A stretch of 64,000 nt of DNA from Escherichia coli (GCF_029227855.1 NZ_CP074356.1), one strand, 5' to 3'; counted from the stretch's first letter, positions 35,324-46,040 are shown. Numbers and translations are program-made. Notes: generated by a model from the sequence alone, not told the origin.

Positions 35324-36802
35324 TTACGCATTCGACCAGCTCTGGATCGAATCCGCATTCCCCAATTCCCCATGCATCACTTCATACGATTTTTTCAGGA
35401 TTACATCAGTATGTTTGGTTAACTCCTTGAAAATGCCTTTATTCATCGCGTTGTAGCGTTTGGCGTTGCTCTCAACAGGCATAAAGATATCTTTCACGCG
35501 AACCATTTTGTCGACAGCCGTTGCGTAATCCGGGTATAGCCCCAGACCTACCGCCGTATTAATCGCTGCCCCCAGGCTTGCACAACCGTTAATGGCGTTA
35601 CGGCGTGCCGGAAGGTTGAACACGTCGGCAAAAATTTGCATAAACAGATCGCTGTTCGAACCGCCGCCAGTAATGATCACATGCTTTGCAAAGTGATTCA
35701 TTTCATGACACATATTGTCGTAATTGTTCTTCAGCGTCAGCGCCACGCTTTCCAGAATCGAACGATATATCCATGCGTAATCCATGCTGGAATCAAAGCC
35801 GATCATAATCCCGCGTTTGTACGGTTCCCACGGATTGGTCAGCCAGTCCAGCACCGTCATCAGACCATTACAGCCTGGCGGCACACAAGACGCTTTTTTG
35901 TTGAGTAAATCTTCCGGTGAAAGATCCTGCGCCCTGGCATCCTGAATTAACGACTCGCCTAGCATGTCGCGCAGCCAGCTCACCGTCCACATGCCTTTGC
36001 GAATACCGTAACCTTCATACAGCAATGTTTGCGGAATAGAAGACATAATCGGCCAGTACGCTACCGGATCTTTCGGCAGTGCTTTGCCGTTCATCATCAA
36101 CGCGATGTAAGTGCCAAGAGAAATTACCGCAGTTTCATCATCCAGTAACCCGGCTCCCAGTGCTTCTACCGGTTTATCACTGGTGGTACAAACAACCGGC
36201 AGCCCAGCTGGGAAATGTGTCGCCAGCGCGGCTTGAGGAGTGATATGCCCAAGAACAGTGCCCGGCATTTGCACATCAAACAGCATATGACGGGGGATAT
36301 TAAACTTCTCCATGACTGCGGCATCTTCACTCCATGCCCAGGTCTTATAATCCACCGGCCACTGACCAAAATAGTTGGCGATATTGTCTTTAAACTCGCC
36401 GGTTAAGCGATGCGTCAGATAACCTGAAAAAGAGGTGACATATGCCACGTCAGGATTCGTATGTTCGTAAGGGCGTGTAACGCGTGCATCCTGCCAGCTA
36501 ATCAACGGCGCAGCTGGCGTGCCATCGGCTTTCAATAACGCACGGCAGCAACGGATGGATCCCAGACCAATACCGACAATATCTTCTTTATTCCCGGCAA
36601 ACTGACTCATCAAATCGTGACCGGCAAAACATAATGATGCCCATAAATCGTCGTCAGGATGTTCTGCGGTATCGGCATCTGGCGTGTGCATCGGCTGCAA
36701 TAAGCCTTTGCCTTCGCAAACCACATTACCTTCCAGATCATACATCACCACTTTTGTGCTCTGACTTCCACCATCAATCCCTATGATGTATTTTTTCGAC
36801 AT
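35324..36802 (-). CDS. ygcE: FGGY-family carbohydrate kinase, 492 aa
   Basis: ORF track 492 aa MSKKYIIGIDGGSQSTKVVMYD... Confidence 0.88.
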   Translation of the reverse strand: MSKKYIIGIDGGSQSTKVVMYDLEGNVVCEGKGLLQPMHTPDADTAEHPDDDLWASLCFAGHDLMSQFAGNKEDIVGIGLGSIRCCRALLKADGTPAAPLISWQDARVTRPYEHTNPDVAYVTSFSGYLTHRLTGEFKDNIANYFGQWPVDYKTWAWSEDAAVMEKFNIPRHMLFDVQMPGTVLGHITPQAALATHFPAGLPVVCTTSDKPVEALGAGLLDDETAVISLGTYIALMMNGKALPKDPVAYWPIMSSIPQTLLYEGYGIRKGMWTVSWLRDMLGESLIQDARAQDLSPEDLLNKKASCVPPGCNGLMTVLDWLTNPWEPYKRGIMIGFDSSMDYAWIYRSILESVALTLKNNYDNMCHEMNHFAKHVIITGGGSNSDLFMQIFADVFNLPARRNAINGCASLGAAINTAVGLGLYPDYATAVDKMVRVKDIFMPVESNAKRYNAMNKGIFKELTKHTDVILKKSYEVMHGELGNADSIQSWSNA

Positions 36803-36828
36803 GATTTTTCTCCTGTAATTTTCTGGAC

Positions 36829-38106
36829 TTACTTGCTGCTAGCCATAGCAGGGGCGCTATCAGCAGTACGAATTTTTTGGAACAGCAAAAAGGTAAAGAC
36901 GATCACCATGGCAAGCGCCGCCATGCCCATCAGCCACATATTGCGGTAGGCTTCTGCAGCGGGCAGGGTGTCTTGCCAGTAGCCGATAATCGAGTAAACG
37001 AAGACATCCGGCAGGAATCCAATCACCGAACAAATACCTACCGTGGTGCCCATAATGTAAGACGGTGTTCTCGCTTCGCCAGGGCAGGCCCAGTACAGCC
37101 CGCGTGAGGCGTAACAGGTGAATCCCAGCAGTAAAATCAGGCCAATCCCCATCGCGACCGATTGCGGGTTAGAGTTCGTGACGAGCAGGGCAGTTAACGC
37201 CAGCAAGCCGAGTACGGAAAGGATTTGGATCACGCGGGTAGGGGATTTCACTTTGCTGTAGGTGGTGATAATGCCGCCAAGTGGGCCGCACAGCGCGCGG
37301 AAGATTTTGTTGATCACAATCCCCATGTAGCTCGCCGCCACCAGCGACATGCCGTACATTTCGGTCAGATAGTTGGTGGAGTAACTCAGAATGGCGTAGA
37401 TGGTGAAGACGCCAAAAATCACCATGCTGCAATACCAGGTGGTGCTGATGCGCAAAACGGCCAGGATGTCGCTAAGCTGGAATGACTGTTTTTCTTCGTT
37501 ATTGGCACTGCGCAGATTGTTGTTATCGCTAACAAAAAACCAGCACAGAATCCCCAACAAGATGTAAACCACACTATAGATGATGATGACCGTTTTCAGA
37601 CTGGCGCTGTCATCCGGAGCGAAGCGAGAAAAGACCCACATGGTAAACACCGCCAGCGACATTACACCGACGCCGCGCAGCCCTTCCATCCAGCCCATAA
37701 TTTTCCCTTGCTCGCTATGATCGCCCAGCAATGAGGCGGCTTTAATCGACACCGACCACAGCATTAAAATAGTGGTTATCGCAAAGGCGACCTGAATACA
37801 GAGCATTACCCACAGCGGTGGATATGTTGCCATTAACAGACCCAGTAATCCGGTAATGATCATCGCGGAAGTAATCATTTTGCGGTGTGAAAATTTATCG
37901 GCAATAACGCCGCTGGGGGCATAAAGAATAATGGCCGCAATACCAAATGTACTCATTATTAAACCTATCTCGGTATTGCTGAATCCCATAAATTTCGCCA
38001 TGGGAATTTGATAAATATAACGTAAATACGCCAGGTCGAAACTAACGCCGCCGCTAAAACTAATTATCGCGAGGGTTATCCAACGGCGATATGAGTTGTG
38101 TTGCAT
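36829..38106 (-). CDS. yqcE: MFS transporter, 425 aa (start trimmed to MQHNSYRRWITLAI)
   Basis: ORF track 484 aa with 59-codon extension; ATG at 38106 (cat at 38104-38106 on + strand). Confidence 0.82.
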   Translation of the reverse strand: MQHNSYRRWITLAIISFSGGVSFDLAYLRYIYQIPMAKFMGFSNTEIGLIMSTFGIAAIILYAPSGVIADKFSHRKMITSAMIITGLLGLLMATYPPLWVMLCIQVAFAITTILMLWSVSIKAASLLGDHSEQGKIMGWMEGLRGVGVMSLAVFTMWVFSRFAPDDSASLKTVIIIYSVVYILLGILCWFFVSDNNNLRSANNEEKQSFQLSDILAVLRISTTWYCSMVIFGVFTIYAILSYSTNYLTEMYGMSLVAASYMGIVINKIFRALCGPLGGIITTYSKVKSPTRVIQILSVLGLLALTALLVTNSNPQSVAMGIGLILLLGFTCYASRGLYWACPGEARTPSYIMGTTVGICSVIGFLPDVFVYSIIGYWQDTLPAAEAYRNMWLMGMAALAMVIVFTFLLFQKIRTADSAPAMASSK

Positions 38107-38285
38107 ATCGTATTCCCATTTGTAATAGACAAAAAAAAAGAGAAAAGTAAGCCGCCCTTTCAGGTGGATTACTTTTCTCAGGTCTCTAGTAATTGCAATA
38201 AGAAATAACATGGAAAGCAGTGGTGTTGTGTGAGAGTAATCACGCTTCTGCTTTTTAAAATTATTTGACAATTCGAATATCACAC

Positions 38286-44501: not shown

Positions 44502-44517
44502 AAATTATCCTTATTAT

Positions 44518-44778
44518 TTATCCAAAGCGGTAGGTGATGCCGAATCCGGAAGGCGGATAGCGCCACTGTTGTAGTGTTGATTCGTCGCACAGCAAACGGC
44601 AGGTGCCACACTCCAGGCAGCCGCGATAATCAACGCGTAAGTCACCTTCCGGTGTGAGCGAAAAAAGACCAGCTGGACAAGCGTTAATCAACCGTTGTAC
44701 CGTCTGGCGCTCAACGGAGTCAGCCGGAACAATGTGCGGCGCATCGGCAACGCGCCAGAGATTACGGGCTACAGACAT
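44518..44778 (-). CDS. ygcO: Ferredoxin-like protein (FixX family), 86 aa
   Basis: ORF track 98 aa trimmed to MSVARNLWRVADAPH; cysteine motifs CPAG / CLECGTC. Confidence 0.8.
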   Translation of the reverse strand: MSVARNLWRVADAPHIVPADSVERQTVQRLINACPAGLFSLTPEGDLRVDYRGCLECGTCRLLCDESTLQQWRYPPSGFGITYRFG

Positions 44779-46040
44779 CGCAGACTCCTGATAACATCGC
44801 CCGCCAGATGCCACAGGCCGTGACGACGTAAATGACGCCAGAATAACTGGCGCAGCGGTGGAACAGGTTTATCACCCTGATCCCATAAATCACGGGAAAT
44901 ATCCTGCATTAACGCAGGCCACGCACGGTACCATCCAGGGCGTTGCAAAAGCGCCGGAACATGCTGATAACGTTGTAGAACATCCCATAGCAGGCTGCGC
45001 TCTACGTTGTGATGATAAAGCGCAAACAGATTTTGCGGCTCGCGGTGCTGGCAGGCGCTTATCAGCGTTTGTGCCGCCGCCTGCGCGCCAGTCAGCGCCA
45101 TATCCATGCCGCGCACGGAAATTCCGGTATTGACGCAACTGCGCAACGCATCGCCCACCAGCAGCCAGCCGTTACCGGCGTATTGCACCGGCATACTGTG
45201 CAAGCCACCTTCTGGCACCAGATGCGCACCATACTCCAGTGATTCCGTGTTTTTGATAAGCGGGCGCACTGCCGGATGCGTTTTAAAGCGAGCCAGCAGC
45301 TCGCTTGCCGGAACACGACTTTGCGTAAGGGAAGAGAGCGGGCAAACAATCCCTAACGAGAGCGTTTGTTGATTAGTATAAAGAAATGCGCCGCCGGGTA
45401 AGTCATCACAGATCCCGCCGCTGAACAGCAACGCTGCGCCTTCGTTATTCTCCAGATGAAAACGTTCTTCAATAGCGGATGTTTCCAGCGACAGCACTTC
45501 TTTGATCCCCAACGCCATCGCTTCGCCAGCAGGACGAGTCACTAACCCGTGACGTTCAGCCAGGACGCTGTTGGCACCTTCTGCCAGCACCACATAACGG
45601 GCGCGGAGAATATCGTCACCACAAATGACACCACACACCCTGCCGTTTTCTTCATACAGCGCATCCACCGTCGCACCGGGGATGCATTCGACACCTTCTT
45701 TTTCGGCTTCGGCAACCAGCCACGGATCGAACCGTGCACGTAATACACTCCAGGATTCACGGCCGGGCTGTAAGCTGGAAAACGTCGTTGCGCCATCCGG
45801 CGTTAGCAGAGAAAGGCTTTCGTGAGTGATGCGTCGTTCAAGAGGCGCGGTCAGATGAAATTGCGGGAGGAGTTCCGCGAGCGCATGGGTGTATAAACGC
45901 CCGCCGGAAAGATTTTTGCTGCCGGGGATTTCAGCGCGTTCCAGTAACAGAACGGACAAACCTGCCCGCGTGCAGCGTAACGCGCAAGCGGTGCCTGCTA
46001 TACCCGCACCAATAATAATAATGTCGCAGTTGTCTTCCAT
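44769..46040 (-). CDS. ygcN: FAD-dependent oxidoreductase (FixC / ETF-QO-like), 423 aa
   Basis: ORF track 433 aa trimmed to MEDNCDIIIIGAGIAG (FAD-binding GxGxxG). Confidence 0.82.
   Translation of the reverse strand: MEDNCDIIIIGAGIAGTACALRCTRAGLSVLLLERAEIPGSKNLSGGRLYTHALAELLPQFHLTAPLERRITHESLSLLTPDGATTFSSLQPGRESWSVLRARFDPWLVAEAEKEGVECIPGATVDALYEENGRVCGVICGDDILRARYVVLAEGANSVLAERHGLVTRPAGEAMALGIKEVLSLETSAIEERFHLENNEGAALLFSGGICDDLPGGAFLYTNQQTLSLGIVCPLSSLTQSRVPASELLARFKTHPAVRPLIKNTESLEYGAHLVPEGGLHSMPVQYAGNGWLLVGDALRSCVNTGISVRGMDMALTGAQAAAQTLISACQHREPQNLFALYHHNVERSLLWDVLQRYQHVPALLQRPGWYRAWPALMQDISRDLWDQGDKPVPPLRQLFWRHLRRHGLWHLAGDVIRSLRCL

Follow-up and report, generated by a model that had tools for sequence, protein, structure and literature searches.

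The ygc cluster of Escherichia coli (ygcE, yqcE, ygcW, ygcU, ygcS, ygcR, ygcQ, ygcP, ygcO and ygcN) occupies positions 35324-46040 of a 64,000-nucleotide stretch of chromosome (the window; coordinates are counted from its first nucleotide) and is one of the larger gene blocks of E. coli K-12 still without a function. Our tentative reading is that it forms one catabolic regulon, in which CRP and two leader RNA elements gated by the GlpP-family protein YgcP would control the breakdown of a hydroxylated onium (betaine-like) compound via YgcU, a flavoenzyme of the alkyl-dihydroxyacetone-phosphate (alkyl-DHAP) synthase (ADPS, also AGPS) type. The cluster itself is a long-known set of y-genes, and its "unknown substrate" status stands. 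What is added here is a conserved, putatively protein-dependent antitermination element for which neither the searched papers nor Rfam yielded a description, a link at the level of the regulon with genes for betaine-type uptake and methyl transfer, and the predicted ADPS-type nature of YgcU, which together make an old open question directly testable. YgcP and the two leader terminators represent a defined regulator and cis-element from which a reporter could be built to screen for inducers, the chemical class to be screened is defined as well (hydroxylated molecules of quaternary-ammonium or betaine type), and the binding protein of related operons is directly screenable for ligands. If true, this reading would mean that Enterobacteria have an antitermination system of the GlpP type, that flavin catalysis of the ADPS type has a new role in catabolism, and that onium compounds derived from osmolytes or lipids have a new sink in marine sediments and the gut.

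Two related leader RNA elements lie on either side of a CRP site

The 319 bp gap between the divergent genes yqcE and ygcW holds one near-consensus CRP site, matching TGTGA-N6-TCACA, and two related leader terminators (Table 1). CRP binds this site in vitro with a dissociation constant (Kd) of 1.7 nM (Footprint-seq preprint, PMC12871828), a CRP peak is present at the yqcE/ygcW region in chromatin immunoprecipitation sequencing (ChIP-seq) of enterotoxigenic E. coli (PMC4287617), and the site is among the top PhyloScan CRP predictions (PMC1794230). These data show CRP binding between the divergent blocks, where CRP may act as activator or as repressor. Two class-II CRP promoters may be placed at approximately 41.5 bp on each side of the CRP site. 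Genomic SELEX has found RpoD holoenzyme binding in the same region, which carries an H-NS flag, and has proposed different promoter hexamers (PMC3946193). Both leader terminators are downstream of every candidate promoter.

The yqcE leader has a fold energy of -21.6 kcal/mol (z -3.9) and matches the covariance model of the element with 71.2 bits (E 7e-11); it was found in 5,063 of 5,426 E. coli genomes, and RefSeq annotates nothing at this position. The ygcW leader folds with -31.5 kcal/mol (z -6.2) and matches with 75.3 bits, and its terminator, which ends 24 nt upstream of the ygcW ATG, is the strongest terminator-like site of the region (19 pairs plus U8). In both leaders a heptamer lying upstream (AGUUACC or AAUUACU) can base-pair with a portion of the terminator's 5′ arm, and the heptamer and its partner surround a loop of the form AGAGA-n2-4-GAGAAA. 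The antiterminator pairing overlaps the terminator 5′ arm, and the two structures are predicted to be mutually exclusive.

Support for both helices was obtained from an alignment of 45 copies of the element from many genera. Compensatory changes were seen in 9 of the 14 pairs of the terminator helix, and the 7 bp antiterminator helix was 81% paired, with G-C replaced by A-U in 11 sequences and U-A by C-G in 5. None of 500 shuffles reached the antiterminator pairing score, and at least six of the seven pairs could form in 105 of 106 unique instances, as against 33 of 106 after the upstream sequence had been shuffled. The leaders are conserved across Enterobacterales with compensatory changes. 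The first-pass annotation had proposed a co-regulated catabolic unit, and this is supported by a CRP site that is bound in vivo and in vitro and by the presence of the same leader element on both divergent blocks.

No family of Rfam 15 matched the leaders other than weak chance matches and a match to the REP-derived naRNA4. A BLAST search of E. coli with the 82-nt leader recovered only the leader itself, being too insensitive to recover even the paralogous ygcW leader. A metagenome scan for the exact motif, which is a one-sided test, returned mostly enterobacterial yqcE leaders and approximately ten phage-like chance matches, and no glp genes. In the latter, which are marine phage-like contigs (L102, L123, L139, L167, L175 and about five more), GATTACTAGAGGGCACGAGAAAAGTAAT is found upstream of an open reading frame (ORF) resembling a small terminase subunit; it matches the ygc leader motif in its 5′ half, is not followed by a ygc-type terminator, and is probably there by chance.

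YgcP and its leaders as a probable diverged GlpP-type antitermination system

YgcP matches the structure of Listeria GlpP (3kts) with 1.2e-27, and Pfam PF04309 is on record for the YgcP cluster and homologues. In order to compare gene neighbourhoods, 80 genomic loci encoding YgcU orthologues 65-99% identical were fetched, and neighbour counts are given over 81 loci. The covariance model matched in all 16 non-enterobacterial loci that encode a YgcP homologue, and in 4 of the 21 without one on the fetched stretch, these four being two truncated contigs and two Saccharopolyspora loci. The element itself occurs from Enterobacterales to Firmicutes, and its co-occurrence with YgcP suggests that YgcP acts on the leader elements.

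The mechanism of GlpP antitermination, summarised in PMC9604022, provides the closest known parallel. The leaders of glpFK, glpD and glpTQ in Bacillus subtilis have an intrinsic terminator between the promoter and the first gene, as the ygc leaders do, and the regulators of both systems belong to PF04309. Canonical leaders were taken for comparison from Priestia and Paenibacillus glp loci; in those of Priestia glpF and glpD, an upstream strand and a GGAGAAUnGGAGA loop precede a terminator 5′ arm that pairs with the upstream strand, so that the pairing round a GAGA-rich loop is common to both systems. There are also differences. YgcP-type proteins form a separate, highly conserved subfamily (E. 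coli YgcP is 59% identical to a cluster-linked protein of Thalassobacillus and 31% identical to canonical Priestia GlpP), the ygc RNA has a distinct sequence (AGUUACU-AGAGAnnnnGAGAAA-AGUAACUUCC), and its covariance model gives the Priestia glp leaders no significant score (17.9 bits, E 0.2, whereas accepted ygc-type copies score at least 32 bits). The ygc targets are ygcW, ygcE and ygcU, electron-transfer flavoprotein (ETF) and betaine-type transporter genes rather than glycerol genes, and the ygc version is present in Proteobacteria, E. coli included. Taken together, the two identity values, the shared layout and the 17.9-bit score suggest that the ygc element is probably a diverged subclass of GlpP-type leader. 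The distinct YgcP subfamily presumably uses it with a different phosphorylated ligand; glycerol-3-phosphate (G3P) was considered as the cognate ligand and judged unlikely given the 31% identity and the low score of the glp leaders.

YgcU is predicted to share the catalytic apparatus of alkyl-DHAP synthase

Sequence comparison with relatives of solved structure placed YgcU closest to ADPS (7e-40), followed by D-lactate dehydrogenase/glycolate oxidase (9e-26) and LctD (1e-21), and PF01565 and PF02913 are on record for YgcU and its homologues. Residues R419, S527, T568, Y578 and H615-617 of guinea-pig ADPS align with R262, T349, S388, Y398 and H438-440 of YgcU, which are invariant in 12 diverse orthologues together with many further residues. 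All of the top 30 solved-structure fold matches of the AlphaFold model of YgcU were ADPS; this model is of modest confidence (pLDDT 68) and served only to rank folds. YgcU orthologues with 65-73% identity are distributed across Enterobacterales, Desulfobacterales, Negativicutes, Clostridia, Bacilli and Actinomycetes.

In ADPS a substrate carbanion adds to flavin N5 and the C1 substituent leaves; a Tyr and an Arg are important for this reaction, and a gating domain is described as unique to ADPS (PMC3509576). The role of the Tyr and Arg is also reflected in the titles of mutant entries in the PDB. YgcU keeps the catalytic Arg and Tyr and the His-His-His loop, and on the basis of the ADPS mechanism it may likewise act on a phosphate of DHAP type whose C1 bears a leaving group. 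YgcU differs in being shorter (484 residues, compared with approximately 580-660 for ADPS), the alignment beginning at about residue 193-215 of a 658-residue ADPS, and it has neither the N-terminal gating domain nor the lipid tunnel; absence of the tunnel makes a small polar substrate likely. It is also encoded together with a kinase, a short-chain dehydrogenase/reductase (SDR) and an ETF in a catabolic operon under CRP control, and a net redox reaction is likely for it, whereas ADPS catalysis is redox-neutral. YgcU is therefore best described, from its aligned residues and fold, as ADPS-like in catalytic apparatus but not an ADPS.

Assignment of YgcU as a GlcD/LctD-type 2-hydroxy-acid dehydrogenase is disfavoured by its alkyl-DHAP-synthase-like sequence, residues and fold. 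An LctD-like second FAD oxidase with a GEHGxG motif (U2) is encoded in 17 of the loci, all outside Enterobacterales, and YgcU has the ADPS-type motifs instead. The LctBCD complex of Acetobacterium woodii and other pairs of FAD oxidase and ETF resemble the ygc set in that a flavoenzyme of the VAO family is encoded beside a dedicated ETF beta/alpha pair, and the solved relatives of YgcU and YgcQ include LctD and LctC. The LctD-like protein of these loci is however U2, which is absent in E. coli and restricted to non-enterobacterial, mostly anaerobic loci, and the ygc proteins give no sign of confurcation or bifurcation.

Betaine-type transporters and methyltransferases accompany the module in other phyla

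The universal core of the module comprises ygcW (76 loci), ygcE (68 loci, 27 of them outside Enterobacterales) and ygcU (81 of 81). The ETF pair ygcR and ygcQ is present in 61 loci, of which 26 (counted for ygcR) are non-enterobacterial, and is missing from halophilic aerobic Bacilli, SAR324 and an Erwiniaceae-type variant, all of which keep the core. The genes ygcS (41 loci) and ygcN (35 loci) are confined to Enterobacterales, as is ygcO.

Of the 37 non-enterobacterial loci, 20 encode either BCCT transporters (20 genes in 14 loci) or an ABC system of the OpuA/ProVWX type. In the OpuA-type operons the binding protein has EgtUC, choline-binding proteins, OpuBC/OpuCC and ProX as its nearest relatives, and each of these binds trimethylammonium compounds (quaternary amines). 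Five non-enterobacterial loci encode a non-Pyl methyltransferase of the MttB family, accompanied in two of them by a corrinoid protein and a methyl-tetrahydrofolate methyltransferase. The RNA element is found directly upstream of BCCT genes (L002, L064, L065 and L069), of OpuA-type operons (L077) and of an operon in which MttB is encoded together with a PanB-like gene, OpuA genes and a proline-racemase-like gene (L072), and equally directly upstream of yqcE-like major facilitator superfamily (MFS) genes in E. coli, Photobacterium, Eubacterium and Aequitasia. YgcS appears to take the place of the BCCT and OpuA importers in Enterobacterales.

The variants that lack both ETF and the FixCX-like proteins, namely the Erwiniaceae-type loci (L034, L035, L039, L046, L048 and L049) and the SAR324 locus (L050), encode a YghZ-like aldo-keto reductase and a homologue of formaldehyde-activating enzyme (Fae; 134.9 bits, above the cut-off of 118), and most of the Erwiniaceae-type loci additionally encode an aldehyde dehydrogenase. 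These extra genes hint at an aldehyde or one-carbon (C1) by-product.

Two loci are assigned to unexpected hosts. A "Planctomycetota" metagenome-assembled genome (L005) and "Chryseobacterium sp. 18061" (L028) contain DNA 99% and 89% identical, respectively, to the enterobacterial ygc cluster, with full enteric synteny in L028 and a stretch too short to judge in L005; contamination or mis-binning is the most likely explanation.

Kinase, reductase, electron-transfer proteins and transporters

In NCBIfam, all ten proteins stay below the curated equivalog cut-offs, although the family assignments of the first-pass annotation (FGGY kinase, two MFS transporters, SDR, FAD-linked oxidase, ETF alpha and beta, FixC/FixX-like proteins and GlpP-like regulator) all hold. 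YgcE scores 143 bits on XylB (cut-off 380), 139 on LsrK (528) and 102 on GlpK (590), and its best solved relative is LsrK (2.5e-29); being below the cut-off for the kinases of known specificity (XylB, LsrK, GlpK, GntK, AraB, FucK and RhaB), it can be placed by these scores in the FGGY superfamily only. YgcW reaches 349 bits on the KduD model NF005390, just under the cut-off of 369. YqcE scores 66 bits on the D-galactonate-transporter family (cut-off 395), and the best solved relatives of YgcS are OCTN2 (4.6e-22) and OCT1/OCT2, with the sugar porter GlcP behind (4e-17).

YgcQ is related to human ETF alpha (7e-23), Geobacter ETF (1e-22), LctC (4e-22) and the Thermotoga-type ETF 7koe (7e-16), and YgcR to Paracoccus ETF beta (5e-12) and LctB (1e-5). 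Electron bifurcation is unsupported for the cluster, as canonical non-bifurcating ETFs are at least as close to both proteins as bifurcating ones; the NCBIfam ETF and Fix scores of the pair are far below the cut-offs. YgcO scores 84 bits on the FixX model (cut-off 166), and YgcN scores 384 bits on PRK10015 (466) and 366 bits on FixC (610); YgcN and YgcO are paralogues of FixC and FixX.

Paralogous sets of ETF and FixC/FixX-like proteins are encoded in the same genome by fixABCX/caiTABCDE and ydiQRST. The fixABCX genes serve the carnitine pathway, and CaiT, the quaternary-amine carrier of that system, is a BCCT protein. The ygc proteins differ from this set in falling under the NCBIfam cut-offs for FixA, FixB, FixC and FixX, in having an ADPS-like flavoprotein rather than an acyl-CoA dehydrogenase as the partner enzyme, and in the absence of CoA-transferase or CoA-ligase genes from the cluster.

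Proposed pathway and alternative explanations

The pathway that we tentatively favour would begin with the import of a small hydrophilic compound combining a terminal diol or polyol with an onium (quaternary-ammonium/betaine-type) or similar leaving group, by the OCT-like YgcS and/or YqcE in E. coli and by BCCT or OpuA-type systems elsewhere. The SDR YgcW would oxidise a secondary hydroxyl, and the FGGY kinase YgcE would phosphorylate the primary hydroxyl, giving a 1-substituted ketose or DHAP-type phosphate. This phosphorylated intermediate would be the ligand that relieves termination: YgcP holding it would bind the GAGA-rich antiterminator loop, and RNA polymerase would read through. YgcU would deprotonate the carbon beside the carbonyl, form a flavin N5 adduct and expel the substituent as ADPS expels a fatty acid, leaving a product at the triose- or ketose-phosphate level. 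Oxidative resolution of the flavin adduct (iminium) by water, of the kind seen in nitroalkane oxidase, would, if it occurred, give reduced flavin together with a 2-oxoaldehyde or triose-level phosphate, and the flavin would be re-oxidised by the ETF YgcRQ and, in Enterobacterales, by way of the FixCX-like YgcNO to quinone; in lineages without ETF, O2 or another acceptor would take this role.

This oxidative scheme would account for the optional nature of ETF, for the reductase, aldehyde dehydrogenase and C1-handling genes of some variants, and for the presence of MttB methyltransferases beside the module in anaerobes. The oxidative ETF/FixCX route of the first-pass annotation remains the simplest reading for E. 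coli (FAD enzyme to ETF to FixCX-like proteins to quinone), whereas it does not extend to the several lineages that keep the core and lack ETF. A similar logic is familiar from the routes from mannopine to santhopine, for fructoselysine (FrlD/FrlB) and for erythritol (EryA/EryB), in which a dehydrogenase, a kinase and an enzyme acting beside the carbonyl of a phosphorylated intermediate cooperate. The resemblance to these substituted-polyol and ketoamine routes is one of dehydrogenase-kinase-cleavage logic, and other enzyme families act at their cleavage step.

In its most general form the proposal is that YgcW, YgcE and YgcU constitute an unrecognised flavin-dependent route running ADPS chemistry catabolically, cutting a C-O or C-N bond beside the carbonyl in an onium compound that is phosphorylated and linked to glycerol or a polyol, and that this route has a wide distribution, reaching from marine sulfate reducers and Bacilli of halophilic habit to the Enterobacterales of the gut, with E. 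coli K-12 having a ligand-gated GlpP-class switch with its own RNA family. At this breadth it is speculative and, we consider, unlikely. Substrates may include deacylated betaine lipids (glyceryl-trimethylhomoserine type), (trimethylammonio)propanediol-type solutes and N-(polyhydroxyalkyl) amino-acid betaines.

Several points weigh against a betaine-like substrate and an ADPS-type reaction in E. coli. BCCT and OpuA genes are absent from the cluster of this species, so that its substrate may not be the one used by its distant relatives, and the family of YqcE mostly carries organic anions. ADPS catalysis is redox-neutral, and a link to ETF needs an extra assumption; the conserved ADPS residues could mean only that YgcU binds a triose-phosphate moiety, and its structure model is of modest quality. 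The scheme would allow either order of the YgcW and YgcE steps, a chain of C3 to C6, and an amine, an onium or an ether-linked betaine as the group that leaves, and the ligand, RNA binding and enzyme activities are all predictions. The putative class-II promoter placement disagrees with the SELEX-proposed hexamers in a region flagged for H-NS. Published results bearing on the reading are only indirect, being the effects of ygcS over-expression and of D-serine on ygcU described below.

The main alternative is oxidative catabolism of an uncharged polyol or sugar acid (tetritol, pentitol or 2-keto-3-deoxy acid), with YgcU acting as a plain dehydrogenase of a phosphorylated polyol or D-2-hydroxy acid that passes electrons to ETF and quinone. 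We regard it as rather unlikely. It is consistent with the score of YgcW just below the KduD cut-off (349 vs 369), with xylulokinase and LsrK as the nearest relatives of YgcE, with the D-galactonate-transporter family as the nearest to YqcE and with the missing BCCT and OpuA genes in E. coli, and FAD-oxidase/ETF complexes like LctBCD are an established precedent. It is at odds with the BCCT, OpuA-type and MttB genes driven by the same riboregulator in other phyla, the OCT/OCTN-like YgcS, the His-His-His, Tyr and Arg of ADPS in YgcU in place of the GEHGxG kept by U2, and the dispensability of ETF in many lineages. The earlier suggestion of a polyol or sugar acid substrate is on the same grounds too loose, as it misses the BCCT, OpuA and MttB members of the regulon and the OCT-like YgcS.

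The remaining alternatives fit the cross-phylum data less well. A reductive anaerobic electron sink, in which YgcNO and YgcRQ feed a YgcU that cleaves or reduces an activated substrate in the manner of FixABCX/CaiA carnitine respiration, is improbable: aerobic halophilic Bacilli, Erwiniaceae and SAR324 keep ygcW, ygcE and ygcU without ETF, YgcN and YgcO are confined to Enterobacterales, and YgcQ and YgcR are like ordinary ETFs. In its favour are the paralogy of YgcN and YgcO with FixC and FixX, the parallel with the E. coli carnitine pathway served by fixABCX and its BCCT carrier CaiT, and the expectation that reductive cleavage alpha to a carbonyl would be chemically favourable. Less probable still is an alternative glycerol/G3P system with YgcP as G3P sensor, YgcE as glycerol-type kinase and YgcU plus ETF as G3P-type dehydrogenase. 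The RefSeq name of YgcP ("glycerol-3-phosphate responsive antiterminator") and the glp-like layout of the leaders would suit it, whereas YgcP is closer to its cluster-linked Firmicutes homologues than to canonical GlpP (59% vs 31%), the glp leaders score 17.9 bits against at least 32 for ygc-type copies, YgcE is nearer XylB and LsrK than GlpK, E. coli already owns glpK, glpD and glpABC, and the betaine-type importers and MttB of the regulon would be left unexplained. A silent, decaying remnant without present function in E. coli is the least probable of all, since the H-NS flag on the yqcE/ygcW intergenic region, the lack of a clear loss-of-function phenotype in searchable papers and IS3 insertions within the cluster in some genomes stand against ten intact ORFs, retention of at least 80% of the cluster in 93% of complete E. 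coli genomes, leaders conserved across Enterobacterales with compensatory changes, and many invariant residues in the YgcU family.

Published work on the ygc genes

A search of the literature by gene name up to mid-2026 found no substrate assignment for the ygc cluster, in agreement with the first-pass annotation, and a March 2026 PNAS paper still lists ygcU as an uncharacterised FAD-binding oxidoreductase (PMC13012123). Over-expression of ygcS raised the yield of nicotinamide mononucleotide (NMN) from nicotinamide (PMC8601175), and ygcU is induced 1.69-fold by D-serine in enterohaemorrhagic E. coli. Searchable papers contained none joining FGGY with BCCT, and the literature on trimethylhomoserine catabolism and on BCCT/ETF/MttB held nothing on the ygc module. 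False matches were discarded, among them "ygce" as part of the DOIs of journals, YGCU as a motif in splicing, and "ygcO" misprinted for ycgO in a review of PTS-Ntr.

Organisation of the locus and its distribution in E. coli

The segment is E. coli chromosome, 100% identical to that of strain JNEC-KY178 and approximately 98.5% identical to the next-best genomes. The RefSeq annotation of the identical genome lists exactly ten named genes, all ten matching intact ORFs in the window, and the gene content and extent given for the cluster by the first-pass annotation were borne out, as were its flanks, a CRISPR array and queD. The gene overlaps it had reported measure 23 nt (ygcS/ygcR), 4 nt (ygcR/ygcQ) and 10 nt (ygcN/ygcO). 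Its description of a two-operon unit needs correction, as there are three blocks of co-directional genes, yqcE-ygcE (-), ygcW-U-S-R-Q (+) and ygcN-O-P (-), with a hairpin between ygcU and ygcS in addition. This hairpin may be an internal attenuator that partly uncouples ygcW-ygcU from ygcS-R-Q.

A copy of the cluster at 80% coverage or more, in one place, was found in 5,060 of 5,426 complete E. coli genomes (93%); identity was at least 99% in only one of the 5,426 and mostly 95-99% in the rest. Several E. coli genomes have an IS3-family insertion inside the cluster.

Table 1 Features of the ygc locus and its flanks (window coordinates)
Feature	Position	Strand	Description
CRISPR array	34111-34689		61-bp period; flank on the ygcE side
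Degenerate CRISPR remnant	35142-35281		3 repeats; ~450 bp past the main array, ~40 bp from the ygcE stop codon
ygcE	35324-36802	-	FGGY-family kinase
yqcE	36829-38106	-	MFS transporter, distant relative of the anion:cation symporter family
yqcE leader element	38128-38209	-	5′ strand AAUUACU 38194->38188; loop AGAGACCU, then GAGAAA opening the terminator arm
yqcE leader terminator	hairpin 38179->38140; U9 38139->38131	-	GAGAAAAGUAAUCCACC...GGCGGCUUACUUUUCUC plus U9
CRP site	38286-38301		TGTGAttacgaTCACA; between the divergent blocks, by sequence match to the consensus
ygcW leader element	38323-38405	+	Predicted antiterminator 5′ strand AGUUACC 38337-38343, partner GGUAACU 38359-38365
ygcW leader terminator	stem 38353-38394; U-run to 38401	+	GAGAAAGGUAACUUCCCUC-UCGC-GGGGGAAGUUACCUUUCUU, then U-run
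ygcW	38426-39211	+	SDR oxidoreductase
ygcU	39281-40735	+	VAO-family flavoenzyme, predicted alkyl-DHAP-synthase type; signature enzyme of the module
Hairpin with T-rich tail	40776-40797	+	Between ygcU and ygcS; 9-bp GC-rich stem, then TTCTTATT
ygcS	40828-42165	+	MFS transporter
ygcR	42143-42922	+	Divergent ETF beta subunit
ygcQ	42919-43779	+	ETF alpha subunit
ygcP	43926-44501	-	GlpP-family (PF04309) protein; predicted antiterminator for both leader elements
ygcO	44518-44778	-	FixX-like ferredoxin-family protein
ygcN	44769-46040	-	FixC-like FAD-dependent oxidoreductase; presumed ETF:quinone oxidoreductase
queD	46118-46480		Other flank, on the ygcN side

No terminator-like structure and no ygc-type leader element was found in the 77-bp gap between the queD stop and the ygcN start (46041-46117), and ygcN-O-P may be expressed by read-through from queD or from an unmapped promoter. 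The convergent gap between ygcQ and ygcP contains, at 43827-43909, palindromes resembling repetitive extragenic palindromic (REP) sequences and bacterial interspersed mosaic elements (BIME; gcctgataagacgcg...cgcatcaggc), which match Rfam naRNA4 weakly (30.7 bits; gathering score 59.5). In some Firmicutes (L063, L065 and L069), a second full leader element is located between ygcE and ygcU, in place of the ygcU-ygcS hairpin.

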